The position numbers and the translations under genes were made by a program. This document shows positions 2,021 to 47,016 of a DNA stretch of 64,000 bases, in pieces. Position 1 is the first letter of the stretch. Each line of letters starts with the position of its first letter. The DNA comes from Patescibacteria group bacterium (GTDB lineage: Bacteria; Patescibacteriota; Patescibacteriia; UBA10025; JAHIVO01): NCBI GenBank assembly GCA_043808365.1, contig JAZDEZ010000021.1, positions 403 to 64,402 of the forward strand, given 5' to 3'. A model generated the notes under the pieces. It was not told the origin of the DNA. It saw nothing but the letters and a program-made list of their open reading frames with translations, and ran no database searches.

Positions 2021-3097
2021 ATGAGTACATTAATGATTCTGCTGTTAGCCGTGGCTGGAATGGGGATAGTGCATTATTTCCAGTCATGCCGTCCAGACAT
2101 CGGCAAGAAAAACACTGCCGATTTTCTCAAGAGAGACAGGGAAAACAAGACTAAGGGGAATGAGGAGGATGTCCCCAAGAAACTGTGCGACACTGTAGAT
2201 AGCGTCATGCCATCATGCGAATATTCGGATACCGTAGTCACCAAACTGATAGTCGGCTTATTCCAGCTCATACTCATCCCACTACGACTGATCAACAATG
2301 CTTTCGTGTTGTTCATTGGCTTTTTACTGACTGCCATCGACGAAGCAAAACGTGCAATCCATGAACGATTCAAGAAACAGAATACCGCTAATGGTGAATA
2401 TTCACGCGGCCTCATGATTTCGTTCATTGCCCTGATTGCTCTGGTCGTATTAACCATGGCCAATTACCAGATCCTAAAAATAGGATTGCCGATCATCTGG
2501 CCAGTGGACAAAAGACCAATCATGAACATCTTCGGCATGGATGTATATGTTGTCAACCTGCTGGCCATCCTTATGATCGTTGCGGAATTCACCGCCAGCC
2601 TGCTGGCGTACGAATATCGTAGTTCAAAGGGTCTCATTGTAAAAAAAAGCAAGAGTACATCTGCCGTCATGTACCTCATCCTTATCATTTTATGTGCGGC
2701 TGAGGCCTTATTGGCAGTTTACCGTACTCAATACCAAACGAACTACAATAATAGCCTGCCGCTGTATGCCATTGGCTTCATCTCCTTCATCGTGCCGCTC
2801 CTCGCCGCCTTTTGCTTCGAGAAAATTAGCATGTACTTGGTCTGGATGCTGGCTGGTATCATGCTGATTGTCGTCGGTATCCTCTGGCTGCCGTTCCTAA
2901 TTGCCGAAATAATTGTCTCCTGGCTGCTATCACTGGCCCTCTACCTTTTGGAGGCCATATCAGCGCCTTTCCGCATGGCACACAAGGCGACTATAGACAT
3001 CCATGAATGGTCAACCGATGATGACGAATGCCAGGAAACGGAACCGAAACTGCTTAAACAAAAGATAAACGCACTCCAAACCAATGAAGGACGGTGA
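2021..3097 (+). CDS. Polytopic membrane protein of unknown function (about 7 predicted TM segments)
   Basis: 358-aa ORF. AGGAGG lies 10 nt upstream of the ATG. There are multiple long hydrophobic stretches and a charged N-proximal loop. No recognisable catalytic motif. Confidence 0.6.
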   Translation: MSTLMILLLAVAGMGIVHYFQSCRPDIGKKNTADFLKRDRENKTKGNEEDVPKKLCDTVDSVMPSCEYSDTVVTKLIVGLFQLILIPLRLINNAFVLFIGFLLTAIDEAKRAIHERFKKQNTANGEYSRGLMISFIALIALVVLTMANYQILKIGLPIIWPVDKRPIMNIFGMDVYVVNLLAILMIVAEFTASLLAYEYRSSKGLIVKKSKSTSAVMYLILIILCAAEALLAVYRTQYQTNYNNSLPLYAIGFISFIVPLLAAFCFEKISMYLVWMLAGIMLIVVGILWLPFLIAEIIVSWLLSLALYLLEAISAPFRMAHKATIDIHEWSTDDDECQETEPKLLKQKINALQTNEGR

Positions 3098-3102
3098 TCA
3101 CC

Positions 3103-3810
3103 ATGAAACGCCTACTGATCCTACTACTGCTTGGCTGCATAGTGATGGTTCTGGCGTCATGTTCAGAGCCCGTTCACCAGCAGCCAAAGTTCGTCATTGC
3201 CATTTTTGACGAACCGTCATCTATGAACGAACAGGCGCTGGAACAGGGGAAAGTGTTCATCGACAGCCGGATCGTCCCGTTGTTGGAGGGCGGCGACAAA
3301 TTCGGCATCATTTCTATCAGCGGCAACTCCTTTACCTGCCCGGACACTGGCCAACTATTCACGCTTGTATCGTCGCCAATAACCTGCGACAGGGAAATGG
3401 ACTCGATCAACTCCATAACGTTAAATCAGATCCATCGCCTGATCAGTGAAGTGCGCATCCGGCCAGAATTCACTGCCAGTGACATTCTAGGCGCCCTGGC
3501 CAGGGCCAGCACCTTCTTCGTCGAGGATACTCTGTCCGAAAAAATCCTGATCATCATCAGCGATATGGAAGAAAACGTCTGGCGACCGGGGATCACCGAC
3601 CTGATCAAGCTCAACGGCGTCCGCGTCTATGCCCTTTTCATCAGCCACAAGTTCAAAAACATCAAGGATGATGTCCAGGCATATACGGCCAAGAAACAGT
3701 ACTGGGAAAACCTCCTGCATTCTACCGGCACGGCCAATTCGTTCCTCTGGGACGACGACATCTCCCGCCTGAAAATGGATTGGTTAGTTGAGCAACTTGA
3801 GCAAAACTAA
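3103..3810 (+). CDS. Lipoprotein with a vWA-like domain
   Basis: The signal peptide ends in the lipobox LASC. FDEPSSM and ILIIISDMEEN resemble vWA/MIDAS-type strands. The gene is coupled to the upstream gene (its TGA stop lies at 3095-3097). The ATG at 3103 is preferred over the GTG at 3094. Confidence 0.5.
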   Translation: MKRLLILLLLGCIVMVLASCSEPVHQQPKFVIAIFDEPSSMNEQALEQGKVFIDSRIVPLLEGGDKFGIISISGNSFTCPDTGQLFTLVSSPITCDREMDSINSITLNQIHRLISEVRIRPEFTASDILGALARASTFFVEDTLSEKILIIISDMEENVWRPGITDLIKLNGVRVYALFISHKFKNIKDDVQAYTAKKQYWENLLHSTGTANSFLWDDDISRLKMDWLVEQLEQN

Positions 3811-4413: not shown

Positions 4414-7014
4414 ATGAAAACGGCAAGATTCTTTTCTACGGTATTGCTTGCGGCATTTGTGTTCGTGGGCATCATGTCGGTTCAGCTCGGATGTGATAAA
4501 CACCAAAATCCAGTCGAACCGACAAAAGCACCTGACATAATCACAATGGTTGGCGGTTCCAATGGGGATTCTGCTACTCAGACTGAAATCGGTCCTGTTG
4601 CAGCATCCCTGAACCAGACACCAGTGGTCATTGGCCCCAACGACCTCATCACGGTCACTGATTACCAGCCAACGTACACCCAAACGGTTAACCTCACTAT
4701 GCCGGATGTGGTGCACCGGGGGGTCATTAACCGTACTGGCATAAAAGATGTGGTTGTACATGAGTTAAGCCGTGTTACTGGAAATCTTGTAACAATCAAT
4801 GAAATTGTCCAGTACCAGCCGCTAACAAACACCATAAAAGGTGTGAGTATCTATGCCAAGTATGGCGCGACGGGACTTGATATCCTAAACTCCATTGATA
4901 CGTACATGAATGGTCAGGAATGGGAATACTATGCGATAACAAAGAGCACCAAGACTGACTACTTCCTGTTACCCAAGAAAGCAGTGGCTATCCCGCCAGT
5001 CTTCGGACCTGGTAATATCGCCAATCTTTTGCCGAAATACCAGGAATTACCCAGTCCGATAACAGTACCCCAAATTGCTGGCAAAATAAAGGAAGTCATC
5101 CTCACTACTTCAAAGGGGTTATGCATTGCAATTGATGTTGGCATAGTCTTGAGTTTAGTGTCCGGGCCAGAAATAGTTGGTGTCGGTGCATTCGCGTGTG
5201 CGCTCGTTGCCACGGACGACTTGGCCCAGCAAGTTGTCGACATGATTAAGCAAAGTTCGAATGTCCGAGTGTACTTCAAACGAATTGAGTATGACGGGAC
5301 AACTGATCCACTCATTCTACTTATTTCCACGCCTATACCGAATCCGCAGCCGATTTTCCAGCTTGATATCTTACCGAATACTCAGGTTGAACTCATGCAA
5401 GGTGAAACGAAGCAATTCAACGCTTACCCACGTGATGCATCCGGGAACATTGTCGGTGCTCCCGTGAGTTGGTCAACAACCTTCGGCACTATTGATGCAA
5501 ATGGTTTGTATTCTGCTACTACGGTTGGTCAAGGGACCGTTACGGCAAGTTTAGGCAGTGCATGGCCTAACGTACCACCTGCTACTGTCAAAGTGGTCGT
5601 AACAGCCGTCATCGCCAACCGCCCGCCCATCGTCAGTGTGCCGGCTTCAGCCAGTGCGACCATTAACATGCCGATCACTATCAATATCACTAAGAGTGAT
5701 CCGGATGGAAATGCGGTACAGATTGCCGTTGACCCTGGAAACCAGACAGTTGAATGGGTACAGGGCACCAGCTACACTCACACATTTAACGTAGTGGGCG
5801 TCTATAATGTCCGTTTCACTGGGTATGATGGCAAGGCATGGTCGCCGACCGCCATCTGTGTCGTGACGGTAGCCGGTCCGGCTAATCGCCCGCCTGTGGT
5901 GAGCGTTCCTCCGACGGTTAATGCGACCATTAACGTGCCGGTCACCATCAATATCATTAAGAGTGATCCGGATGGAAATGTGGTACAGATTGCCGTTGAC
6001 CCTGGAGACCAGACAGGAATCGAGTGGGTGCAGGGCAATAGCTACATCCACACGTTTAAGGCCGCTGGCATGTATAATGTTCGCTTCACCGGGCACGACG
6101 GCAAGGCATGGAGCCCGACCGCCATCTGTGTTGTGACGGTAGCCGGTCCGGCTAATACTGCGCCGACAGCCTGCATGTCGGTTTCACCACAAAACGGCAG
6201 CGGCACAACTGCGTCAGTCTTCACCTTCACCTCATGCTCAACGGATCCCGAAACCCCGGTTGACGCCCTGCAGGTCCGCTGGCAAATCGACGGAGTCTGG
6301 ACAGCCTGGACCACGTTGAAAACGCAAACAAAACAGTGGACTACGGTTGGACAGAAGACGGTCGTTCTTGAAGTGAGGGACGCTGGTGGGTTGACAGCAC
6401 AGGCAACTAAAACGGTTATTGTGAACCCGCCGCTGAACAATCCGCCGACTGTAAGTGTCGCCAGCACGACTACGGGGCAGGTTGGTGCAACAACCGTAAT
6501 ACCGTATACGGCAAGCGATCGGGAAACACCTTCAGCTAATCTCTGTGTGGCGGTAGACTGGCTCGATGGATCAGCGGCCGTATACTTCTGGGGTGGAGCA
6601 CCAGCGACATACATCTTCAAATCGGCCGGCACGTATGATGTGCGATTCACAGCATGGGACGGGACTGACTGGTCGCCGACGGCGATTTGCAGAGTGACTG
6701 TCACCAGCGGGTGCTCCAACATGCCAACGCTCCTCGGGCCGATCAACGGGCAAACGGTCAGCTTGAGCGCAGGTTTCTCGTTCTACTGGACGAAGGTCTG
6801 CGACGGATTCGGCGAATACAACCTATACGTGATGACTGCGCCGAATTCAACCGGCAAAACTGTCTTCGCGGAAAGAATGACCCCGACTTATACGTCGCTC
6901 GGTTACTGGGGATCCGGCCTGCTGCCCAATACGACGTACTATTGGTGCCTGCAAATGGGCAACTTTGTAGGTGCGCCGCTGACACCGTTTGCCTCGTTTA
7001 GAACGGCGCCATAG
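4414..7014 (+). CDS. Large secreted/surface protein with Big_2-like, PKD/Ig-like repeat and FN3-like domains
   Basis: N-terminal signal peptide. VELMQGETKQFNAYPRD..GTVTASLG resembles a bacterial Ig-like (Big_2) domain. Two near-identical ~90-aa repeats and two further diverged copies are present. The C-terminus has a YYW-containing beta-sandwich-like segment. AGGAG lies 8 nt upstream of the ATG. Confidence 0.75.
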   Translation: MKTARFFSTVLLAAFVFVGIMSVQLGCDKHQNPVEPTKAPDIITMVGGSNGDSATQTEIGPVAASLNQTPVVIGPNDLITVTDYQPTYTQTVNLTMPDVVHRGVINRTGIKDVVVHELSRVTGNLVTINEIVQYQPLTNTIKGVSIYAKYGATGLDILNSIDTYMNGQEWEYYAITKSTKTDYFLLPKKAVAIPPVFGPGNIANLLPKYQELPSPITVPQIAGKIKEVILTTSKGLCIAIDVGIVLSLVSGPEIVGVGAFACALVATDDLAQQVVDMIKQSSNVRVYFKRIEYDGTTDPLILLISTPIPNPQPIFQLDILPNTQVELMQGETKQFNAYPRDASGNIVGAPVSWSTTFGTIDANGLYSATTVGQGTVTASLGSAWPNVPPATVKVVVTAVIANRPPIVSVPASASATINMPITINITKSDPDGNAVQIAVDPGNQTVEWVQGTSYTHTFNVVGVYNVRFTGYDGKAWSPTAICVVTVAGPANRPPVVSVPPTVNATINVPVTINIIKSDPDGNVVQIAVDPGDQTGIEWVQGNSYIHTFKAAGMYNVRFTGHDGKAWSPTAICVVTVAGPANTAPTACMSVSPQNGSGTTASVFTFTSCSTDPETPVDALQVRWQIDGVWTAWTTLKTQTKQWTTVGQKTVVLEVRDAGGLTAQATKTVIVNPPLNNPPTVSVASTTTGQVGATTVIPYTASDRETPSANLCVAVDWLDGSAAVYFWGGAPATYIFKSAGTYDVRFTAWDGTDWSPTAICRVTVTSGCSNMPTLLGPINGQTVSLSAGFSFYWTKVCDGFGEYNLYVMTAPNSTGKTVFAERMTPTYTSLGYWGSGLLPNTTYYWCLQMGNFVGAPLTPFASFRTAP
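5611..6150 (+). repeat. Tandem ~270-bp in-frame repeat (2 units) inside the surface protein gene
   Basis: Unit 1 starts at gccaaccgcccgcccatcgtc (5611) and unit 2 at gctaatcgcccgcctgtggtg (5881). Both end with ..gtgacggtagccggtccg. Long identical runs include agagtgatccggatggaaatg and gtacagattgccgttgaccctgga. Confidence 0.9.
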
Positions 7015-7544: not shown

Positions 7545-8657
7545 ATGGAAAATGTCGCGGACAAACTACGGCCAAAACCGCGCCGTCCCGCCCGCTGGGC
7601 GGCAATTCTCACAATAACCATTGCCTGTCTTATCGCTGGCGCAGTCTGGATATGGCAATACAACAGTTCGCGATATGACAAACAGCCTGAATTAATATTA
7701 AACGCCCAACGCGCCATATCGCCCGATGCCGCCAACAGCAACAAAAATAGCGCTACCACGACGCTGATCGCCGTCGGCGACATTATGCTGTCGCGGGATG
7801 TTGAGCAAAAAATGATCAATAAAAAAGATTGGCGGTTCCCGTTTTTAGAAACAGCCGCTCTGACCTCGGCCGGCGATATTGTTTTCGGCAACCTCGAAAC
7901 GCCCCTCATCAACGGACCGAGGGTGCTGACCGGGGAAATGTCATTCCGCGCAGACACCCGATCAGTGGCCGGCTTAACGTATGCGGGATTTAATGTCCTG
8001 TCATTGGCGAACAATCATGTGAAAAATCAGGGCGAGGCGGGCATCGCTTCAACGATCGAAACGCTTGACCAGGTAAATATTTTACACGCTGGAGCCGGAT
8101 CAAATGATGCGGCCGCGCGCGAACCGGCCATTATGGAAAAAAACGGGCTCAAGTTCGGTTTTCTGGCGTATGTGGACAGCGCGTTCACGCCCGCATCGTA
8201 TGAAGCGACGCCAATTAGGGCTGGCTCGCCTTTTTTAAATGAAGCTGCTTTAGCGGACGACCTGGCTGGACTGAAACCGCGGGCTGACGTCATTATCGTC
8301 TCAATGCACGCCGGCACTGAATACCAGGACTCGCAAAACCAAAAACAAACCAGCTTCGCCCGGCGGGCCATTGACCTGGGCGCCCAGGTGGTGATCGGCC
8401 ACCATCCGCACGTCGTCGAGCCGGTCGAACAATACCGCGACGGCTATATTATGTATTCACTCGGCAATTTCGTCTTTGACCAGATGTGGTCGGCCAAGAC
8501 CCGCGCCGGCGCCGTAGCGACAATCACCTTCACCGGAACCAAACCTTCGGATATTAAAATAACTCCCATAAAAATATTTGAGTACGCCCAGCCGAGAGTG
8601 ATCGAGGGCACGGAAGCTGAGGCAATTTTGGCCAGGATGAATAGTTTTACAAAATAG
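7545..8657 (+). CDS. CapA/PGA-biosynthesis family metallophosphoesterase-like protein with an N-terminal membrane anchor
   Basis: Motifs seen: IAVGDIML, FGNLETPL, LSLANNH, VSMHAGTEY, VIGHHPHV, YSLGNFVFDQ. Confidence 0.8.
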   Translation: MENVADKLRPKPRRPARWAAILTITIACLIAGAVWIWQYNSSRYDKQPELILNAQRAISPDAANSNKNSATTTLIAVGDIMLSRDVEQKMINKKDWRFPFLETAALTSAGDIVFGNLETPLINGPRVLTGEMSFRADTRSVAGLTYAGFNVLSLANNHVKNQGEAGIASTIETLDQVNILHAGAGSNDAAAREPAIMEKNGLKFGFLAYVDSAFTPASYEATPIRAGSPFLNEAALADDLAGLKPRADVIIVSMHAGTEYQDSQNQKQTSFARRAIDLGAQVVIGHHPHVVEPVEQYRDGYIMYSLGNFVFDQMWSAKTRAGAVATITFTGTKPSDIKITPIKIFEYAQPRVIEGTEAEAILARMNSFTK

Positions 8658-8674
8658 ACGTTTTATGATATAAT
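8646..8674 (+). promoter_or_regulatory. Sigma70-type promoter TTTACA-N17-TATAAT with TG extension
   Basis: The 21-nt string cgttttatgatataatcaacg (8659-8679) is identical to 21784-21804. Confidence 0.6.
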
Positions 8675-8697: not shown

Positions 8698-9582
8698 ATG
8701 AAAAAATCATTCCCAAAAATTACGAAAGTCATCATCCCGGCCGCCGGATTCGGGACGCGTTTTTTGCCGGTTACCAAAGCCATGCCGAAGGAAATGCTGC
8801 CGATCATCGATAAGCCGGTCATCCAATTCGTCGTGGAAGAGGCGGTGTCAGCCGGCATCAAAGACGTGATCATCGTCACCAGCTGGCAAAAACGCTCGCT
8901 CGAGGACCATTTCGACTATTCGCTCGAGCTCGAACGCCAACTGGAATCAACCGGCAAATTAGAACAACTGAAAGAAATCCGCCGCATCCCGGAGCTGGCC
9001 AACTTCATCTATATCAGGCAGAAAGGCCCCTACGGCAACGCCACGCCGGTCATTTCCGCGCGCCATCTGGTGGAGCACGAGGCTTTCGCGGTTTTATGGG
9101 GAGATGAATTTTTCCACAGCGACCCGCCCCGCCTGAAGCAGATGATGGCCGTGTACGAAAAATACGGCCATTCGGTCATCAGCGCGGTGCGCATCCCGAA
9201 CAAGAATGACGTCTCAAAATACGGCATCGCGGACATTGAGCCGGTAGAGGGAAACGTATTCCGGATTAAATCGCTGGTGGAAAAACCAAAACCGGAAGCA
9301 GCGCCGTCCAACCTCGCCACGCATGGAGCCTATATTCTGACCCCGGGCATTATCCAGTCGCTTCGCCAGCTCCAGCCCGGCAAGGACGGTGAGTTGTGGC
9401 TGGTCGACGCGATCAAGGACTTAATGACGCGCGAACCGGTGTATGCCTGTGAAATCAAAAACAGCACGTACTACGATACGGGCAATAAGCTGGAATACCT
9501 GAAAGCCAACATCGAATTCGCCCTCCTGAGGGACGACCTGTCACAGCCTCTGCGGGATTATCTAAAAACTCTTCCTCTATGA
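8698..9582 (+). CDS. galU: UTP--glucose-1-phosphate uridylyltransferase
   Basis: KVIIPAAGFGTRFLPVTKAMPKEMLPIIDKPVIQ at the N-terminus, with a typical length of 294 aa. Confidence 0.9.
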   Translation: MKKSFPKITKVIIPAAGFGTRFLPVTKAMPKEMLPIIDKPVIQFVVEEAVSAGIKDVIIVTSWQKRSLEDHFDYSLELERQLESTGKLEQLKEIRRIPELANFIYIRQKGPYGNATPVISARHLVEHEAFAVLWGDEFFHSDPPRLKQMMAVYEKYGHSVISAVRIPNKNDVSKYGIADIEPVEGNVFRIKSLVEKPKPEAAPSNLATHGAYILTPGIIQSLRQLQPGKDGELWLVDAIKDLMTREPVYACEIKNSTYYDTGNKLEYLKANIEFALLRDDLSQPLRDYLKTLPL

Positions 9583-10976
9583 CAAAACGCATGGCCGTAC
9601 GGCGCCATCAAAAAGGCATCTCGAAATTATTCATCCTGATCATTCTGGGCGGCATTGCGCTGGTCATTGGCGGGGTAGTTTTCATCATTTTCGGGCCAAA
9701 AGGCGCGCCAGATCCAAAACCGGTCAGCCTGGCTATTTGGGGCGTGTGGGACGAAAGCACTGACCTCGCGCCGATGACCAATGCCTACAGCCAAGCGCAC
9801 CCGTATGTAAAGATTACCTACGTAAAAAAACGGCTGGAAGAATACCCCGACGCGCTGCTCAATGGCTGGGCGACCGACACCGGCCCGGATATATTCGTTA
9901 TTAACAATACCTGGATCAACAAATACGGTTCGGAATTCATCGCGCCGATGCCGAAGTCAACTACCGTATACACCTACACTACCAAGAAAACTCTATTCAA
10001 AACTGACACGAAAATTACGGCCACGCCGACCGCGTCCATTACCACTGCTGACATCAAGCGCAATTACGTCACGGCAGTGTATGACGACGTTATATTTGAC
10101 GGAAAAATATACGGCCTCCCCTTGAGCGTCAATACGCTCGTGATGTATTACAATCGCGATCTCTTGAGCCAGGCCCATATCGTGAATCCCCCGAAAACGT
10201 GGGTTGAATTCGCCAATATCCTGCCGAAAATAACCCTCCTCGATGATCAGAATAATATTGTCCGGGGCGGGGCGGCGCTCGGAACCTATGACAACATCCC
10301 CGGCGCCAATGACATTGCCACCATTTTGATGATGCAGAACGGCACCGTGATGGCGAGCGGCTCAAAAATAACTCTTGGCGCCAGCGCGACGGGCGATCCC
10401 GCGTATGTCCCCGGCGTGCAAGCCCTCCGATTTTATACTGATTTTGCCAGCCCGAACAAAACCGTCTACACCTGGAACAAAGACATGCCTAATGCCCTGG
10501 ATTATTTCGCGGCCGGCAAGCTGGCATTTTTCTTCGGCTATAAATACCAGGAAGCGGACATCAAGGCGAAAAGCCGCGGCATCGACTACGCCATTGCCCC
10601 TCTGCCGCAAGTAAATTTGGAAAATGAGGTGAACTTTGCTAATTACAGCGTATTTACCGTCTCGAAAAAAACAAAAAATTCCGCCGTGGCCTGGAATTTC
10701 ATTCAATTCGCGAATGACAAAAAATTGAATGCCGCCTACACAAAAACTACCAGCCAAACCAGCGCCCTCCGGGCCGTCCTCAATGACCAAATAAGCGACC
10801 CCGACCTGGGGATCCTGGCCCAGCAGGCACTGACCGCGACGAGCTGGTACCATGGCCGCGATCCTGAAAGCGCCGCGGCGGCGTTTAGGGAAATGATCCA
10901 GACCGCGTCAGCCGATCCCAACGACATAAAAAAAGCTCTTGACGCGGCGGCGGTAAAAATCCAGCAGACATATTAA
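9579..10976 (+). CDS. ABC-transporter-type extracellular solute-binding protein (sugar family), membrane anchored
   Basis: N-terminal TM anchor. An SBP family 1-like pattern is present (LAIWGVWDE.., GPDIFVINNTW, YGLPLSVNTLVMYYN). The start overlaps the galU stop as ATGA. Confidence 0.7.
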   Translation: MTKRMAVRRHQKGISKLFILIILGGIALVIGGVVFIIFGPKGAPDPKPVSLAIWGVWDESTDLAPMTNAYSQAHPYVKITYVKKRLEEYPDALLNGWATDTGPDIFVINNTWINKYGSEFIAPMPKSTTVYTYTTKKTLFKTDTKITATPTASITTADIKRNYVTAVYDDVIFDGKIYGLPLSVNTLVMYYNRDLLSQAHIVNPPKTWVEFANILPKITLLDDQNNIVRGGAALGTYDNIPGANDIATILMMQNGTVMASGSKITLGASATGDPAYVPGVQALRFYTDFASPNKTVYTWNKDMPNALDYFAAGKLAFFFGYKYQEADIKAKSRGIDYAIAPLPQVNLENEVNFANYSVFTVSKKTKNSAVAWNFIQFANDKKLNAAYTKTTSQTSALRAVLNDQISDPDLGILAQQALTATSWYHGRDPESAAAAFREMIQTASADPNDIKKALDAAAVKIQQTY

Positions 10977-10985
10977 TTCCTCACC

Positions 10986-12986
10986 ATGAACGCTCAGAAA
11001 AAAAACCTACTGCTCATTTCCATTTTCTCTCTCATTTTTATTGTCGGCGTGTCATTGCCTTTCCTGACCCATGCGGCTGACGATACGGGCAGTGGTTTTG
11101 AATTTATCCCTCAGGAATGCACCGGCAACCAAGGCCCAGATGACCCTCCTTGCGATTTGAACTCCTTTGTTAATTTATTCGTCAACCTGGCGCAGGTGGC
11201 GCTCAAAGTCCTGCCCTTCCTGGCCATGCTCATGATGATCTGGGCCGGATTCAACCTGATTACCGCCGGCGGCAGCCCGGAAAAAATCCAGCAGGGCAAA
11301 AAAATGGTCACCTCCGTCGTGATTGGCGTCGTTATCGTCATTTTCCTGGCCTGGGGATTCGCCGCATTCGTTGTATCTACGCTGACATGTAATCCCCAGG
11401 ATCTGGCAGCAGGGAAGACATGCCTCGGTACAGTATTCCCAGGCTACGGCACCCCATTTGAAAAAGACTGGTGGGGCGGCGGCGAAGCTAACCCCAAACC
11501 CCCGAACTCCGGCTGCTGCGTCGTGGAATTCAGCGGGTGCAAAGAAGTCACGCAAACCGAGTGCACTTCCTGGAGTACGCTTTACGACGACGAGGTCCAG
11601 TTTATGGGCGAAAACGTATTCTGCTCCGAAGCCAAGGCAGTCTGTGAAAATTATACCAAAGGCTGCTGCGTACCGAACGATCCCACTGAAAAAACATGCT
11701 ACTGGCCGGACGCAAAGACGGGCTGTATCCCCTATCCGACGACTCAACATGACCCCACGGCCTGCAAGTATCTTGGCCAAAAATGCGACAAGGATAAAAT
11801 CCAAGGTGAAGGAACGGCAGACGAGGGCGTCACCGGCTGCTGCGTCCAGCTTTCAACCTGCTCCATGACAAAAATTGGCGACTGCCAGTCCGGAGGCACA
11901 TTCTTGCAGGGCAAAGACTGCTCTACTTCAGACGAGGGCAAGGACTCATGCGGCTCTGGCTGCTGTATCGGCAAGAATAGCTGTACAAAGGGCAAGGTCG
12001 GCTGTGACAGCAAACTCTGGGATCCTCAGGAATGCTCCAGCCTGACTAATGATTGTGAAACCAACTGTTGCGTTCAAGATCCGGGTGGCAATAACAACTG
12101 CTATGACAACACTACCCGGAGTTATTGCGGCTCCGTGCTCCAAGGTAATACGCAAGCTGTGCCTTGTTCATCAGTTCCTGTATGCACAAACGGATGTTGT
12201 GCAGAAACTTGTACCCCAGGAAATATTGATGGCGCTTGCACTGATTATACATATGTCAGCGGTACTGCCTGTAATGTCCTGCCAGAATGCCAAGGCGTCT
12301 GCTGCCTGTACGCCAACTCTCTTTCATGCTCATCGAATATTTTGACGAGGGATTGCCAGGATGCCGGTGATGTGATCATCCCCGGAGGTGCTCAATGCCC
12401 AACGGCCACTGACGAAACATGTGAGCAAGTCACCTGCTTAGAATCTGACAATGGCACCTGTCTGACAAAAGCAAGAAGGCTATGCGTAGCTCCAGACGTA
12501 ATAAACCCCGGGGGTGGCCTCTGCGATACCGGCTGCTGCTTTATCCCGAATGACGTCGCTTGCCACGACCAATATACCCGTGACCAATGCGGCCGAGCTA
12601 GTGGAACTTTTTCCCATAACACCTCCTGTTCAAAAGTCGATAACTGTAACGGCTGCTGCGTGAAAAAACATGACACCTACTCCTGTTCCGAGTCCTGGAC
12701 GCGCGGCCAATGTACGGCCGATAATGTCGCCAACACGTTTTATCCCGGAGACAAATGCACTGACGTCACTGAAGCTGGCCAAAAAGTGTGCACCGTCGGC
12801 TGCTGCCACTACTGCCTGAATAATGACTGCGTGGCCAATCCGGACATCTGCACCATGCTCTCGACGCAACAATATTGCTCAACCAGAGGCCCGGTGGTCG
12901 AATTCGTCCCCAATGATCCAGCCTGCTATGTCCTGCGGCATCGGGAGATAAACCCCATTCAATGCGATGTCGTAAACTCAAATTAA
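10986..12986 (+). CDS. TrbC/VirB2-like (T4SS-pilin-like) membrane protein fused to a ~490-aa cysteine-rich repeat domain
   Basis: Signal peptide. The pilin-like core is LPFLAMLMMIWAGFNLITAGGSPEKIQQGKKMVTSVVIGVVIVIFLAWGF. This is followed by 10 CC-containing modules (GCCV x4, GCCI, NCCV, GCCA, VCCL, GCCF, GCCH), each with downstream spaced single Cys residues. Confidence 0.7.
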   Translation: MNAQKKNLLLISIFSLIFIVGVSLPFLTHAADDTGSGFEFIPQECTGNQGPDDPPCDLNSFVNLFVNLAQVALKVLPFLAMLMMIWAGFNLITAGGSPEKIQQGKKMVTSVVIGVVIVIFLAWGFAAFVVSTLTCNPQDLAAGKTCLGTVFPGYGTPFEKDWWGGGEANPKPPNSGCCVVEFSGCKEVTQTECTSWSTLYDDEVQFMGENVFCSEAKAVCENYTKGCCVPNDPTEKTCYWPDAKTGCIPYPTTQHDPTACKYLGQKCDKDKIQGEGTADEGVTGCCVQLSTCSMTKIGDCQSGGTFLQGKDCSTSDEGKDSCGSGCCIGKNSCTKGKVGCDSKLWDPQECSSLTNDCETNCCVQDPGGNNNCYDNTTRSYCGSVLQGNTQAVPCSSVPVCTNGCCAETCTPGNIDGACTDYTYVSGTACNVLPECQGVCCLYANSLSCSSNILTRDCQDAGDVIIPGGAQCPTATDETCEQVTCLESDNGTCLTKARRLCVAPDVINPGGGLCDTGCCFIPNDVACHDQYTRDQCGRASGTFSHNTSCSKVDNCNGCCVKKHDTYSCSESWTRGQCTADNVANTFYPGDKCTDVTEAGQKVCTVGCCHYCLNNDCVANPDICTMLSTQQYCSTRGPVVEFVPNDPACYVLRHREINPIQCDVVNSN

Positions 12987-13028: not shown

Positions 13029-13415
13029 ATGAAAAAAAACATCCTGCTTCTCGCCGTCATCTTCACCCTGACCGCCATCTGGTCGGCCTCCGTCTTATTG
13101 TACCCCGTCCACGTGCAGGCCCAAGAATCCGAAACAACTGCGACCACGCCGTCATTGCCGAACCCTCTGGGTAAAAACGTCAATTTGGTAAAGGTAATAT
13201 TGCGCGTACTCCAGATCATCCTGGCCGCGGTGGATATTTTTGCCCTGTTCATGGTCATCCTGGGCGGGTTTGAATTCTTGATCTCCGCCGGCAACCCAAA
13301 CCTGGTAAAGAAAGCAAAAGACACGCTAGTCTGGGCGATTGTCGGAATTCTGGTCATTACGCTGAGCTATTCCATTTTAAAATTTATTTTCGAAGAAATT
13401 CAGAAAAAACTTTAA
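13029..13415 (+). CDS. TrbC/VirB2-like pilin-family small membrane protein
   Basis: Signal peptide plus the core IFALFMVILGGFEFLISAGNPNLVKKAKDTLVWAIVGILVITL. It is a paralogue of the N-terminal part of 10986..12986. Confidence 0.7.
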   Translation: MKKNILLLAVIFTLTAIWSASVLLYPVHVQAQESETTATTPSLPNPLGKNVNLVKVILRVLQIILAAVDIFALFMVILGGFEFLISAGNPNLVKKAKDTLVWAIVGILVITLSYSILKFIFEEIQKKL

Positions 13416-13421
13416 TGGCGG

Positions 13422-13450
13422 TTGACAAACAGAATGAAAAAAGGTATAAT
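13422..13450 (+). promoter_or_regulatory. Perfect consensus sigma70 promoter TTGACA-N17-TATAAT
   Basis: ggTTGACAaacagaatgaaaaaaggTATAATg lies upstream of the third pilin-like gene. Confidence 0.75.
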
Positions 13451-13526: not shown

Positions 13527-13880
13527 ATGAATAAAAAATTATCTGTCGGTTTATTAACTATCGCGGCAGTCGCCCTGCCATTTGTCGCATCAGCAGTTAC
13601 GGTCGATCCAGTCCTCGGCTCAACTTTAACATTGGGCACAGCAGACCTCGAATCAACAGTCATTAAGATCGTGCAATGGGCGCTCGGATTCCTCGGTCTC
13701 GTCGCCGTGATCATGATCTTGATTGGTGGCTTCCAATGGATGACCGCCGGCGGCAACGAAGAGAAAGTTGCTGGAGCTAAGAAAATTATCTCCGCGGCTG
13801 TTATCGGCTTAATCGTCATATTGCTGGCCTGGGCTATCGTCATCTTCGTCGTCACGCAGACCAACAAGGTCACGACCTAA
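13527..13880 (+). CDS. TrbC/VirB2-like pilin-family small membrane protein
   Basis: Signal peptide plus the core LVAVIMILIGGFQWMTAGGNEEKVAGAKKIISAAVIGLIVILLAWA. A GGGGGTGA RBS is present. Confidence 0.7.
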   Translation: MNKKLSVGLLTIAAVALPFVASAVTVDPVLGSTLTLGTADLESTVIKIVQWALGFLGLVAVIMILIGGFQWMTAGGNEEKVAGAKKIISAAVIGLIVILLAWAIVIFVVTQTNKVTT

Positions 13881-13913: not shown

Positions 13914-13948
13914 CCCCCGCACTGTTAACAGTGCGGGGGTTTGTTTTT
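13914..13948 (+). terminator. Strong rho-independent terminator
   Basis: An 11-bp stem CCCCCGCACTG / CAGTGCGGGGG with loop TTAA, followed by TTTGTTTTT. Confidence 0.9.
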
Positions 13949-26883: not shown

Positions 26884-26953
26884 TAGATAGTAATTAGTAA
26901 ATTAGTAACTAGTGAGTGAGTCAATTTCAGTGCCAACTGCAAACCTAATACCT

Positions 26954-27316
26954 ATGACCATAACTTCGTACAAAGACCTCATAGTATGGCAAAAATCAGT
27001 TGAGTTAGTTACGCAGATTTATCACATAACTAAAGGTTTCCCCAAATCGGAACAGTTTGGGTTAACGTCACAAATCAGGAGGGCAGCAATTTCCATACCC
27101 TCTAACATCGCAGAAGGTTGTGCCAGAAAATCACGACTTGAATACGCTCACTTTATTAGAATTGCATCTGGCTCCGGTGCTGAGCTTGAGACACAACTAT
27201 ATATTGCCCTGCAACTGAATTTTATCGATAAAAATACTTATAACACCGCCGAATCCTTATTAAATGAAATAATGAGAATGCTGAATAAACTGAACCTTTC
27301 TCTAAAATATCACTAA
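26954..27316 (+). CDS. Four-helix-bundle protein (23S rRNA intervening-sequence protein family)
   Basis: YKDLIVWQKSVELV..FPKSEQFGLTSQIRRAAISIPSNIAEG is the family signature. The ATG at 26954 is preferred to the GTG at 26912. Confidence 0.85.
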   Translation: MTITSYKDLIVWQKSVELVTQIYHITKGFPKSEQFGLTSQIRRAAISIPSNIAEGCARKSRLEYAHFIRIASGSGAELETQLYIALQLNFIDKNTYNTAESLLNEIMRMLNKLNLSLKYH

Positions 27317-38664: not shown

Positions 38665-39768
38665 CTATTGCTTAATCGGCATGATAATGTAGACATAGTC
38701 GCCGTCCTTTTCCGGCTTGATCAGGCCTGGGCTGAGGTTTGAATTTATTTCAATGACGCAGTTAGATGAGTTAAGGTTTTGCAGGCCGTCAAGCAAGAAC
38801 CGGTAATTGAACACGATATGGTTTTCATCGCCCTCGATAGTCGCTTCCTGCACCGCTTCGCTTTCGCCAACCTGGGCGTTAGTGGTATTCACCGTGATCT
38901 GTCCGGCTGATTTTTCGAACTTCAAGACAATGTCATTGCCGCCCGGCTTGCAAAACAGGCTGGCCCGTTTGACGGTATTAATAAACTCCTGGGTATCGAC
39001 GGTGATCTTCGTCCGGTACTCTTTGGGGATGATTTGCTGATAATCAGGGTATTGGCCCTCGATGACGCGCGAGGTCAGTTTGGTCTCGCCTAGGTCAAAT
39101 AATATTTGATTTTCATTGCAGACAATAGCGACGGGGTCATTATAATCACCCAAGATTCGCACTAATTCCTGGATGGTCCGGATTGGAACGATGACATTGT
39201 GCTGGCTGGCCGCCGGCTTGGATAGAGCGACTTTCTTCTCCGCCAGACGGTAGCTGTCCGTCGCCACCGCAACGAGATTGCCTCCCTCAAAATTAAAATA
39301 TACGCCGCTGATTTCCGGCCGCGTCTCGTCATACGCCACGGCAAATGCCACGTTTGACAGCGCCCGGCGCAAGGTTTCGGCGGGAATTTCAAATTTTTGC
39401 TTGGCATCAACCTCGGGAATCAAGGGGAATTCCGAAGCCTCCAGGCCCTTCATGACCGTCTTGGACTTCTTCCCCTTTATCTTCATGCTTTGGTCAACCA
39501 CCTCGATTTCAATATTTTCTTTTGGCAGTAAATTCACGTAATCACTCAGGGTCTTGGCCTGCACGGTAAAGGCCCCTTCTTTTTCCACTTTGCCGCGCAC
39601 CTGGCAAATAATGCCAATTTCAAGGTTTGTGGTGAGAAGTTTAATAACACCCTGCTCGGCGCGGATCAAAACATTGTTTAAAATCGGCAGGGTAATATTT
39701 TTGCTGGCCACATGACTGACCAAAGAAAGGCCTTTTGTTAAATTTTCCTGCGTGCATATTACTTTCAT
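38665..39768 (-). CDS. dnaN: DNA polymerase III beta sliding clamp
   Basis: 367 aa. MKVICTQENLTKGLSLVSHVAS..LPILNNVLI is a typical N-terminus. The gene lies directly downstream of dnaA. Confidence 0.9.
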   Translation of the reverse strand: MKVICTQENLTKGLSLVSHVASKNITLPILNNVLIRAEQGVIKLLTTNLEIGIICQVRGKVEKEGAFTVQAKTLSDYVNLLPKENIEIEVVDQSMKIKGKKSKTVMKGLEASEFPLIPEVDAKQKFEIPAETLRRALSNVAFAVAYDETRPEISGVYFNFEGGNLVAVATDSYRLAEKKVALSKPAASQHNVIVPIRTIQELVRILGDYNDPVAIVCNENQILFDLGETKLTSRVIEGQYPDYQQIIPKEYRTKITVDTQEFINTVKRASLFCKPGGNDIVLKFEKSAGQITVNTTNAQVGESEAVQEATIEGDENHIVFNYRFLLDGLQNLNSSNCVIEINSNLSPGLIKPEKDGDYVYIIMPIKQ

Positions 39769-40057
39769 AGTATCTTTATAAATAAATTAATAAATAATAG
39801 TAATAGGGAGGTGGATATGTGGATGAAAATATTTTTTTAAACAAACCAGCTTGCTTTGATTGGATGTTTTTTATGAAATTGTTTTTTATCGGGAGTGAAT
39901 AAGATTTGCAGTAACGGTGGGTGGGGTGTGCGTAAGACTATGTCCGGAAGCAAATGAATTTTTTACGGCTTCAGAAAAGGTTTTTATTCACAATGCGAGC
40001 GTGTGCATGTCCACATATTAGGCGGTGTTCAGAGGCCGGCTATCAACATCTTCCTCA
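39769..40057. other. Candidate oriC segment (dnaA-dnaN intergenic): AT-rich stretch plus DnaA-box-like 9-mers
   Basis: TTATTCACA at 39984-39992 fits TTATNCACA. TGTGGATGA at 39818-39826 is the reverse complement of TCATCCACA. ATGTCCACA lies at 40007-40015. An AT-rich run (tatctttataaataaattaataaataatagtaatag) lies at 39771-39806. Confidence 0.55.
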
Positions 40058-41416
40058 CTAGTTATACAGCCGCTGCCGGATTAATAAAATGTCCTGGCGG
40101 ATTTTTTCGTCTTCATCGAGCGCCCTTTTAATTTTTTCGTATGCGTGCATGGCGGTAGTATGGTCGCGTCCGCCCAATTCTTGGCCAATCGCCGGGTAAG
40201 AGGCCTTTGCTTCTTCGCGCATGAGAAACATGGAGATTTGGCGCGGCACGACAAGCTCTTTTTTGCGGCTCGCGCCCAGTAAATCGCCTGAAGAAATTTC
40301 AAAAAAACTGGCCACCACAGAAATAATTTGCTTGATGGTGATGGCGCCATCGCGTTTTTGGTAGCGAGACAGGCTGGTGATGACGTTTTTCACCGATTCG
40401 ACGGTGGGGGGCGCATGATTGAGCTGGTGATAGGCCATAATGCGGTTCAGGGCGCCCTCAAGTTCGCGGACGTTGCTCTGGACGCTGGTCGAGATGGCGG
40501 TCACGATATCGCTGGCGAGGGGGTAGTTTTTTTCCTTGCATTTGGCGTTAAGGATAGCCACGCGGGTTTCAAAGTCAGGCTGGGCGATGTCGGCAATCAT
40601 GCCCCATTCGAAGCGCGAAATAAGCCTGTTCTCCAGCGCCGGGATGGCTTTAGGCGGCCGGTCTGAGGTGATGACAATCTGATTGTTTTGCTGGTGCAGG
40701 GCGTTGAAAGTATGGAAAAATTCTTCCTGGGTACCCTCCTTGCCGGCCAGGAACTGGATGTCGTCAATCAGCAGGAGGTCGGCGTTTCGGTAATGGTCTT
40801 TGAAGCTCTCCCCGTTCCCCTGGGTGATTGCCCGGATAAATTCATTAGTGAACTTTTCGCACGTGACATAGACTATTTTCTTTTTTGGGGAATTTTTCAA
40901 AACCTCATGGGCAATAGCCTGTAAAAGATGAGTCTTCCCCAGCCCGGCCCCGCCATAAATAAAGAGCGGGTTATACACTTCTCCCGGACGCTGAGCCACG
41001 GCCAGGCAGGCGGCGTGAGCCAGTTCGCTGGATTTGCCGACAACAAAATTCTCAAACGTATATCGCGCATTGAGGCCGTAACTATTTTGCGGATCTTTCG
41101 TACGCGCGGCGGCTGGCCCGGCCATGTTCTGAGTTTGGGGGGCGGCGATTGACTGTCCGGCCCGACGAGTTGATTCAACTTTGTATGCCACTTCTTTCAC
41201 TTGGTTGCCGGTGGCGTTTTGCAGGCTTTTCAGAATTTCCTTGTGATATTTGGTTTCCAGCCAGGTTTTTGTGAAGGTATTTGGCACGCCAATAGCAACT
41301 TTTCCATCGCCGTATTGGGAGATGAAAGTGTTTTTGAACCATGTCGTGAAGTTGGCCTTGCTGATCGACAATTCTAACTCGCCGAGGGCGGCCTGCCACA
41401 GTTGCTCCTTGTCCAT
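40058..41416 (-). CDS. dnaA: Chromosomal replication initiator protein DnaA
   Basis: NPLFIYGGAGLGKTHLL (Walker A), LLIDDIQFL, and the C-terminal HTH region HTTAMHAYEKI. Confidence 0.95.
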   Translation of the reverse strand: MDKEQLWQAALGELELSISKANFTTWFKNTFISQYGDGKVAIGVPNTFTKTWLETKYHKEILKSLQNATGNQVKEVAYKVESTRRAGQSIAAPQTQNMAGPAAARTKDPQNSYGLNARYTFENFVVGKSSELAHAACLAVAQRPGEVYNPLFIYGGAGLGKTHLLQAIAHEVLKNSPKKKIVYVTCEKFTNEFIRAITQGNGESFKDHYRNADLLLIDDIQFLAGKEGTQEEFFHTFNALHQQNNQIVITSDRPPKAIPALENRLISRFEWGMIADIAQPDFETRVAILNAKCKEKNYPLASDIVTAISTSVQSNVRELEGALNRIMAYHQLNHAPPTVESVKNVITSLSRYQKRDGAITIKQIISVVASFFEISSGDLLGASRKKELVVPRQISMFLMREEAKASYPAIGQELGGRDHTTAMHAYEKIKRALDEDEKIRQDILLIRQRLYN

Positions 41417-45147: not shown

Positions 45148-45216
45148 GTAGCGGGGCATTATGCGCTTTAGGCTTGCATGTCTAGGGCGTTTTTTATTTA
45201 CTCGGGCCATTATTAC

Positions 45217-45225
45217 TGTTATAAT
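45217..45225 (+). promoter_or_regulatory. Extended -10 TGTTATAAT 9 nt upstream of the pilB-type ATG (leaderless-type start)
   Basis: ctgTTATAATcagcatagtATG. No Shine-Dalgarno sequence. Confidence 0.5.
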
Positions 45226-45234
45226 CAGCATAGT

Positions 45235-47016
45235 ATGAATGACGATATTACCAGCCAAAACGAAAAAAGCATCGACGACCTGATCGGCGCGGTGCGGGCT
45301 AACCAAAGCGGCAAGATACGCGTGAGTACCGATGAAGTCGAAGAAAAGCTGAAGAGCAAGATACGCGAGATCGCCACAAGGAAAAAGGAAGCAGACACGA
45401 GAGAGCGGGCCAGCTCAAGCGGCGCCGGTTATATTTTTCTCAAGGGTTTTCCGGTCAGTTCGGACGCCTTATCGTTGTTGCCGGAAGAAGAGGCGCGGCG
45501 CTTGAAGGCGGTCTGTTTTTTTAAGACAGATACGGAAATCCGCATCGGTGCGATTGCACCGGAGGATCCGGAAGTTCTGGCATTAGTGGAGCGTTTGTCG
45601 TCAGAGAGCCGGGCCCGCGGCGGCATCTACCAGATTTCCCGGGAAAGTTTTGACGCGGTCATGAAGCTGTATGAGACGTTGCCACGGCCGCGGAAATTCG
45701 TGGCAGGCATTGAATTAAAGGCGGAGGATTTGGAAAAATTTTCCGGCCAATTGAAATCATTCCGAGATTTGGCAGAAAAAATCCAACACGTTTCCATCAC
45801 AGACGTATTTACCATCATCATGGCCGGCGGCATCCAGGCCCGCGCTTCGGATGTCCACATTGAGGCCCAGCAGGAAGACATCAAGATACGCTATCGGATA
45901 GACGGCGCCCTGTATGACGTGGCGGCATTGCCGAAAAAGATGTGGCCGCAGGTCATTAACCGCGCCAAGCTGATCGCCAAACTAAAGATCAATGTCGTAG
46001 ATGAGCCCCAGGATGGCCGTTTTACGATTTATCTGGGGAAAGATTTTATTGATGTCCGCGTGTCCACTGTGCCGAGCGCTTTTGGCGAAAGCATTGTCAT
46101 GCGTCTGCTCATGTCTTCCGCGACAAGCTTAACCCTGGACGATCTTGGCCTGGTCGGCGTGGCCTATGACATCATGAAAAAAGAAATCGACCGGCCAAAT
46201 GGCATGATCCTGACCACCGGCCCGACCGGTTCCGGCAAAACGACAACGCTCTATGCCATCTTGAAGAAGCTGAATACAAGCGAGTCGAAAATAATTACTT
46301 TAGAAAATCCGATTGAGTACCGGATCAAGGGGATTACCCAAAGCCAGGTGCAATCTAGCGAACAATCGGAAGGAGATCAAAAAACCGGAAGCGTAAAAAA
46401 ACATTATACGTATGCCAGCGGATTGCGCGCCGTCCTGCGGCAGGACCCGGATATCGTCATGGTCGGCGAGATTCGCGACCATGAGACCGCGGAAATCGCC
46501 ATCCAGGCCGCGCTGACCGGCCATCTGATGCTCTCCACATTGCATACGAACAGCGCGGCCGGCGCAGTCCCCCGTTTGATGTCCATGGAAGTGAAGCCGT
46601 TCCTTTTAGCGCCGTCATTGAATGTCCTCATCGGCCAGCGCCTGACGCGGAAAGTCTGCCCGGATTGCAAGGAGGAATATACCCCTGACGCTGAAACATT
46701 GGCGCATGTCCAGGAGGTGCTGAAGTCTGTCCCGGACGATAAGAAACAGAATGTTGACATTAACGATCTGCATTTTTATCACGGCAAAGGCTGCGAAAAA
46801 TGCAGCGACATCGGGTTCAAAGGCCGGATCGGCATTTTCGAGATCGTGACCATGAACCAGGATATCGAGAAGCTCATCCTGACCGGCCAGGTGTCAGAAT
46901 ACCAGATCAAGGATATCGCTAAGAAGCACGGCATGCTGACCATGGTCCAGGACGGCATACTGAAGAGCTTGACCGGCATCACCACGCCGGAGGAAGTATT
47001 CAAAGTAACTGAATAA
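45235..47016 (+). CDS. Type II/IV secretion / type IV pilus assembly ATPase (GspE/PilB family)
   Basis: [13 protein letters not shown] (Walker A), [12 protein letters not shown] (Walker B), the Asp and His boxes, and tetracysteine CPDC..CEKC. The ATG at 45235 is preferred to the ATG at 45178 because of the promoter position. Confidence 0.85.

Follow-up and report, generated by a model that had tools for sequence, protein, structure and literature searches.

Results

A pilin gene with a large cysteine-rich extension

This study concerns a stretch of 64,000 nucleotides from a Patescibacteria group bacterium (contig JAZDEZ010000021.1 of assembly GCA_043808365.1; "the window" in what follows) and, within it, a gene named here CysPilin, whose product joins a VirB2-like pilin to a long ectodomain built of cysteine-rich repeats. 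Two small genes, pil2 and pil3, which encode VirB2-like pilin paralogues, lie downstream of CysPilin; upstream are the genes for a membrane-anchored protein of the solute-binding protein (SBP) type and for a GalU-like UTP-glucose-1-phosphate uridylyltransferase (Table 1). An NCBI entry of identical sequence, annotated "MAG: pilin [Patescibacteria group bacterium]", is located on a 192.5-kb contig. The GC content shows a mild drop across the region, from 0.53 to 0.48.

Table 1. Positions of the CysPilin gene, its parts and its closest neighbors in the window (aa, amino acids; TM, transmembrane helix)
Feature	Position	Strand	Remarks
Promoter-like site before GalU	8646..8674		11/12, extended TG
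GalU-like gene	8698..9582	+	First gene of putative operon
Membrane-anchored SBP-like gene	9579..10976	+	9-nt gap to CysPilin; directly upstream in all 12 loci
CysPilin, whole gene	10986..12986	+	666 aa; VirB2-like pilin + Cys-rich repeat ectodomain
Signal peptide, aa 1-30	10986..11075	+	From hydropathy segment aa 5-31 and sequence reading
N-terminal extracytoplasmic segment	11076..11165	+	Cys pair C45/C56
Pilin core: TM1, loop TAGGSPEKIQQGKK, TM2	11166..11387	+	From PF18895, hydropathy and paralogue alignment
Linker	11388..11510	+	Optional Cys pair C135/C146; WWGG motif
WWGG motif, aa 162-165	11469..11480	+	Between TM2 and first module
Modules 1-2, aa 176-283	11511..11834	+	Part matched in shortest (two-module) family members
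Modules 3-7, aa 284-481	11835..12428	+	Six Cys apiece
Degenerate module 7b, aa 482-515	12429..12530	+	"VTCL..."; four Cys
Modules 8-10, aa 516-666	12531..12983	+	
pil2	13029..13415	+	128-aa VirB2-like pilin paralogue; PF18895, 28.7 bits
pil3 sigma-70 consensus promoter	13422..13450	+	TTGACA-17-TATAAT, perfect
pil3	13527..13880	+	117-aa VirB2-like pilin paralogue; PF18895, 49.1 bits
pil3 intrinsic terminator	13914..13939	+	11-bp stem (9 GC pairs) + T-run

The CysPilin protein begins with a basic N-terminus and a hydrophobic core, after which T-H-A followed by A forms a site resembling those of signal peptidase I. Hydropathy analysis delineates three hydrophobic segments, at aa 5-31, about 61-96 and about 103-136: the signal itself and two further helices, TM1 (approximately aa 61-92) and TM2 (approximately aa 107-134), which are separated by a short, basic loop, TAGGSPEKIQQGKK (aa 93-106). 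The Pfam family PF18895 (T4SS_pilin, for type IV secretion system) covers aa 62-128 with a score of 31.5 bits, above the cut-off of 26.6. In NCBIfam, the protein is a weak match to the mycoplasma integrative and conjugative element (ICE) pilin-like model NF045849, Mbov_0395 (21.6 bits for a cut-off of 40). Placing the TAGGSPEKIQQGKK loop in the cytoplasm puts the N-terminal segment, as well as everything past TM2, outside the membrane. The Cys pair of the N-terminal segment is invariant in all 32 members of the family described below. With 532 aa after TM2 and a C-terminal ectodomain of 491 aa, CysPilin is outside the normal size range of pilins. The position of the WWGG motif is occupied in every family member, the more distant ones showing WYGE or WFGG, and the motif may serve either to anchor the protein at the membrane interface or as a place of processing.

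A preliminary description of the window, made from sequence alone, had claimed the fusion of a pilin to a Cys-rich array, and the PF18895 match and the extracytoplasmic repeats do indeed reside in the same 666-aa open reading frame (ORF). The span then given, 11508-12986, is accurate for the Cys-rich part (from about aa 175) and misses the start of the ORF at 10986. Similarly, the pilin part, put at about 170 aa, is present, but its core is confined to aa 62-134 and is followed by a linker of about 40 aa.

A regular six-cysteine module

Cysteine accounts for 70 residues of CysPilin (10.5%); across 19 further ORFs from the window, the proportion is 0.69%. The ectodomain contains 13% Cys and 17% Ser+Thr, is acidic (isoelectric point 4.4), and can be divided into eleven modules of about 40 aa each: ten six-Cys modules that include a CC pair and a degenerate one with four Cys. 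The pattern is CC-x3-9-C-x6-8-C-x9-19-C-x5-10-C, usually with G before CC. All of the CC contexts listed in the preliminary description are there (four times GCCV, then GCCI, NCCV, GCCA, VCCL, GCCF and GCCH), and the degenerate VTCL was located at aa 482-485; the count of two or three Cys after each CC, however, must be revised to four, making six per module. Module 7b is without one Cys of the CC pair and without the last Cys; module 10 has an additional local C-x4-C pair.

At a Cys content of 13%, CC pairs alone are unremarkable. About 20% of shuffled sequences reach ten or more, and for this reason we dropped the CC count as stand-alone evidence. Regular six-Cys intervals occur eight times, and none of 20,000 shuffles had more than five; GCC triplets also occur eight times, against a maximum of six. 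When a hidden Markov model (HMM) of the module was built with CysPilin and its closest orthologue excluded, CysPilin scored 123 bits and the best composition-preserving shuffle -64 bits. At the DNA level, no tandem or direct repeat beyond the GGCTGCTGC motif was found in the module region, which indicates that the modules are old and individually differentiated rather than the product of recent duplications. Each CysPilin module can be matched to an orthologue of its own among the related proteins.

A rare family of chromosomal genes

Apart from the identical NCBI entry, word-indexed searches yielded eleven homologues, each of which displays the succession of signal peptide, pilin, WWGG and modules. 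An exhaustive profile search through 1.84 billion cluster representatives returned only 35 proteins at E <= 1e-3. Once all searches were pooled, the pilin-WWGG-module layout was found in 32 sequences including CysPilin, ranging from 264 to 666 aa and from 2 to 11 CC modules. Identity among orthologues is 52-72% in the pilin part and falls to 23-60% at the non-Cys positions of the ectodomain; nearly all of the CysPilin Cys residues are invariant. The number of CC modules at the same syntenic position varies by species, being 1-2, 4, 8, 9 or 10. No sequence similar to CysPilin was found in phage and plasmid collections.

This distribution bears on a trivial explanation of the architecture, namely that an error of assembly or gene calling fused an unrelated Cys-rich ORF onto a pilin gene, an outcome that the preliminary description had regarded as fatal to the fusion. 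At least 31 other sequences with the same continuous architecture come from independent assemblies, the WWGG linker is conserved among them, and the gene occupies the equivalent syntenic place in nine more genome loci. The recurrence of the fusion across independent assemblies, with its linker conserved, excludes an assembly join, and we give an artefact practically no chance. CysPilin is a genuine chromosomal gene of a bacterium of the Patescibacteria (Candidate Phyla Radiation, CPR).

Signs of cysteine pairing

Exactly six Cys are present in 366 of 412 modules. The number of Cys after WWGG is even in 31 of the 32 family members; throughout the family, the N-terminal outside segment always has one Cys pair, and an optional pair can be found after TM2. 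Modules with four Cys have lost the last Cys along with one member of the CC pair, in most cases the first. Such joint losses occurred in several separate lineages, a non-pilin protein among them, and imply that the last Cys is bonded to the CC pair. Judging from location, even Cys number, fixed spacing and paired gain or loss, the ectodomain qualifies as a generic disulfide-rich extracytoplasmic repeat. Cys parity and paired loss favor disulfides over metal ligands and support the dense disulfide scaffold that had been suggested in the preliminary description.

Relatives of the module and its predicted fold

The remaining hits of the profile search, a kind of approach already proposed in the preliminary description, are non-pilin proteins and reveal a wider repeat family. 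These uncharacterized proteins lack a pilin domain, carry 3 to 29 modules and share the unit G-x-CC ... C ... C-x3-GG-x-F ... C ... C-P. Among them are a 1529-aa protein with a LamG-like domain and 23 modules; a 1672-aa protein with 29 modules from Mastigamoeba balamuthi (P0028; EukProt EP00727); a hypothetical protein of Desulfobacter latus (P0038; WP_178366705); a small protein in which three modules accompany a cytochrome c domain (P0037); and a protein with an IPTL-like membrane anchor at its C-terminal end. In profile-profile comparison (hhalign), patescibacterial and other modules match with a probability of 96% and an E value of 3e-9. An HMM made solely from the non-pilin proteins recognizes CysPilin modules 5, 7, 8 and 9, shuffles scoring -30 bits or less; modules 8 and 9 reach 21.9 bits each and most resemble the repeat as it occurs outside Patescibacteria. 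A "CCHPKISYVNESGVFPVQC" variant of the module is strikingly conserved across several metagenomic proteins. The distribution of the module is patchy, extending from bacteria, including D. latus, to a eukaryotic amoeba, M. balamuthi.

The repeat had been described as belonging to no recognized named family, and this view held. Pfam gave no repeat family for the ectodomain or for eight non-pilin relatives even at E values up to 10, and NCBIfam gave no hit for the repeat, whether in CysPilin or in the non-pilin relatives. Sequence searches of the PDB, with a single sequence and with two profiles, produced no credible match, the only hit being LAMTOR5 at an E value of about 0.6. For structure prediction, 102 distinct six-Cys modules from 12 family members were aligned to aa 516-555. 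The single-module AlphaFold model obtained for this segment has a pLDDT (predicted local distance difference test) score of 83.2 and consists of a beta-beta-alpha-beta arrangement followed by two short 3-10 turns. Foldseek searches with the model found only ADAM17 in the PDB, at a non-significant E value of 3.2, and nothing significant in BFVD.

A conserved cluster and its expression signals

The order PGA_cap - GalU - SBP-like - CysPilin - pil2 - pil3 - DUF2079 - GT-C-like - PGI is the same in 12 syntenic loci from at least nine genomes, among which is a complete Candidatus Kerfeldbacteria chromosome. The genes for GT-C-like membrane proteins past DUF2079 are part of this conserved cluster and lie on the opposite strand. 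Across loci, identity is 35-62% for CysPilin, the least conserved gene of the cluster, 71-97% for pil3 and 70-94% for GalU. CysPilin is also the fastest-evolving gene of the cluster, with 2 to 11 modules between species.

The two small genes downstream had been taken for paralogous pilins, correctly so: both match PF18895 and their cores align with that of CysPilin. The three tandem pilins are pairwise 28-40% identical. In the alignment, pil2 and pil3 run through both helices and stop just past TM2, at the point where CysPilin continues. The pil3 promoter is retained across ten orthologous loci, with 12 of 12 consensus positions in nine of them and 11 of 12 in one. The terminator hairpin is kept in all orthologous loci, with stem sequences that differ and pairing that is preserved. 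Owing to this conserved promoter and terminator of its own, pil3 would appear to be a strongly expressed, monocistronic unit and is a candidate for the major subunit. CysPilin, for its part, is probably co-transcribed with the SBP-like gene, sharing the promoter-like site in front of GalU.

As to the neighbors, SBP_bac_1/8 matches are recorded for the SBP-like orthologue of one syntenic locus (L003). In the window, the SBP-like gene is an orphan, with no ABC permease or ATPase nearby. The segment 13931-20404 encodes large polytopic GT-C-like membrane proteins, comprising DUF2079, two proteins without Pfam match and one with a weak match to GT87; PMT_2 and MptA_B matches occur in the corresponding block of one orthologous locus. 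Since the GTG start of the DUF2079 ORF (13931) overlaps the pil3 terminator, translation of this ORF probably begins further downstream. The GT-C-like block, GalU and PGI, taken together, suggest an extracytoplasmic glycosylation locus.

Other genes of the window

The dnaN and dnaA genes are found on the minus strand (38665-41416), with rnpA and yidC downstream. Their presence, combined with a cumulative GC skew minimum at about 38-40 kb, points to a likely replication origin some 27 kb from the pilin array. A PilB-like T2SSE ATPase of the type IV pilus/competence kind (45178-47016), about 4 kb past dnaA, is unrelated to the VirB2-like array. Upstream of the array, 4414-7014 encodes an 866-aa protein with a single PKD domain, and three ORFs (4-1692, 2021-3097 and 3094-3810) have no Pfam match at all; the PKD protein and these three ORFs are possibly further surface proteins. 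A gene for a four-helix bundle of the 23S-rRNA-IVS/bAvd-like type (26912-27316) is embedded in a cluster for glycogen metabolism, made up of GH15, two starch synthases and two GH57. Diversification of the pilin locus by a diversity-generating retroelement (DGR) was considered and rejected: the bAvd-like gene is unlinked to the locus, and no reverse transcriptase was present among the ORFs scanned.

Discussion

CysPilin resembles the VirB2/TrbC-like pilins of type IV secretion systems (T4SS) in having a signal peptide, two hydrophobic helices, a short basic loop and the PF18895 domain. It differs from them in size, since such pilins are usually about 100-150 aa long and end soon after TM2, and in context, since they sit with T4SS machinery. 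Pilin arrays as such are already known from Patescibacteria: a recent survey describes arrays of 2 to 11 tandem, divergent VirB2-like pilins of the PF18895 or PF04956 families, with a mean identity of 25% (Quinonero-Coronel et al. 2025, PMC12102498). The present locus is like the arrays described there in that it comprises three tandem, divergent PF18895 genes that are chromosomal and on the origin-proximal side. In contrast, it lies outside a virB4 cluster, within a GalU/SBP/GT-C envelope locus, and one of its members bears a Cys-rich ectodomain for which the passages of the survey consulted mention no counterpart. The novelty lies in the joining of pilin and ectodomain, in the family of repeats and in the expression architecture that the triad has conserved; a search of databases and literature turned up none of the three.

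Modules of six Cys, about 40 aa and three disulfides, connected by short linkers and exposed outside the cytoplasm, are familiar from eukaryotic proteins, in the EGF-like, TNFR, GCC2_GCC3/ephrin-receptor-like and ADAM domains. The Cys pattern differs, being CC-C-C-C-C with G before CC in the proteins studied here, and comparison with EGF, TNFR_c6, GCC2_GCC3, VSP/furin-like and the myxococcal Cys-rich repeat gave no profile or fold match to the CysPilin modules.

We propose, with a probability of roughly 0.45, that CysPilin is a low-copy, variable member of the pilin array, equipped with a disulfide-stabilized stalk that presents contact loops. In this scheme, the Sec pathway would export the CysPilin precursor and the signal peptide would be removed; the two hydrophobic helices would then enter the membrane as a hairpin whose basic loop stays in the cytoplasm. 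The 491-aa extension would fold outside into eleven tightly linked modules with three disulfides each, or two in the degenerate one, and one bond per module would run from the CC pair to the final Cys. If other tandem six-Cys domains are a guide, the result might be a rigid, acidic, beaded rod with a length of about 25-30 nm. The bulk subunit would be supplied by pil3, which is very conserved and has its own promoter and terminator. CysPilin could be anchored in the pil3 structure or co-assembled with it, turning its variable surface toward partner cells or surfaces. The role so proposed, that of a low-copy surface contact element associated with a major pilin, is like that of the VirB5 and PrgB tip pilins and adhesins. 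The likeness is a functional analogy only: no such family figures among the Pfam matches, and in CysPilin the adhesin-like part belongs to the same polypeptide as the pilin.

Several observations weigh against this proposal. Among the approximately 56 main ORFs of the window compared to Pfam, there is no VirB4, VirB6, relaxase or other T4SS gene, and no Dsb, MdbA, VKOR or other thiol oxidase; the pilin array is surrounded by envelope and glycosyltransferase genes rather than by a T4SS cluster. An appendage of about 490 aa on a VirB2-type subunit fits a helical pilus poorly unless such subunits are few or confined to the tip. AlphaFold predicts the full-length protein with low confidence (pLDDT 47.7), modules 4-6 faring best at 72-82. 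We know of no filament shown for any PF18895 protein of this clade, and the suggestion of adhesion draws on surface exposure, variability and analogy.

The genomic context and the size of the ectodomain, which speaks against regular pilus packing, could instead be taken to mean that the hairpin is an anchor that never polymerizes, and that the Cys-rich rod crosses both wall and S-layer, serving as a fixed fibril or spacer. The conserved neighbors of the gene (GalU, PGI, DUF2079 and the PMT_2/GT87-like membrane proteins), together with the high proportion of Ser and Thr in the ectodomain, are also in line with this idea; the rod may then be a substrate of the neighboring GT-C glycosyltransferases. 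However, mere anchoring needs no VirB2-like hairpin. The CysPilin gene is always accompanied by two canonical small pilins, and the pilin core of its product has retained the motifs of the family and diverged less than the ectodomain. We therefore hold a fixed fibril to be conceivable and, on the whole, doubtful. A quite improbable variant has the pilin part act as a leader for export and anchoring, the ectodomain being cut near WWGG and freed as a soluble binding factor or toxin-like agent. C-terminal processing is known for TrbC of RP4, WWGG is invariant between TM2 and the first module with no obvious structural role, and the same module is found in secreted proteins that are not pilins. 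Yet the locus has no linked protease gene, a cleavage motif is not known, and Trp-rich motifs near the membrane interface are common anchors.

Finally, the Cys residues might serve a different purpose altogether. In an anoxic habitat the thiols could stay reduced, binding metals or sulfide or acting as a redox buffer. The sheer Cys content of the ectodomain invites this interpretation, as do the relatives found in M. balamuthi and in a Desulfobacter, a genus of sulfate-reducing anaerobes, and the fusion of relative P0037 to a cytochrome c domain. Against it stand the even Cys parity, the loss of Cys in pairs and the fact that additional Cys always come in pairs, as well as the fixed six-Cys spacing with a confident beta-beta-alpha-beta fold; moreover, His and CxxC metal motifs are absent. 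An MdbA-like oxidoreductase family, often beside VKOR, has been reported to be enriched in CPR genomes (bioRxiv 10.1101/335083), which also argues against reduced thiols. A metal- or sulfide-binding scaffold thus seems very unlikely, even more so than the release of the ectodomain.

Cultivated Patescibacteria grow as epibionts on other bacteria, and, to our knowledge, little is understood of how they make contact with their hosts. VirB2-like pilins abound in this group. They are essential in the only species tested so far, Ca. Southlakia epibionticum, where this applies to a predicted pilin series inside the T4SS cluster (PMC10633639). The survey of Patescibacteria looked for T4SS adhesins and reports that none was detected (PMC12102498). 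A pilin that comes with its own stalk, quickly evolving and locked by disulfides, is a concrete and testable candidate for host contact, and the pil3 promoter and terminator provide a simple prediction of subunit stoichiometry. The GCC module, at about 40 aa and with three predicted disulfides, is itself a candidate for a new domain family, rare and present in bacteria and a eukaryote. It is tempting to go one step further and imagine a VirB2-type pilin that brings its own adhesin, in which the new, expandable GCC repeat fused to the subunit supplies the missing T4SS-like contact element of Patescibacteria; we regard this as speculative and rather unlikely as it stands. If it were true, module number, between 2 and 11, and surface residues would shift between species to match their partners. 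It would also mean that a new extracellular domain family is shared with sulfate reducers and an anaerobic amoeba, and that ultra-small episymbionts have a new way to build a surface appendage.

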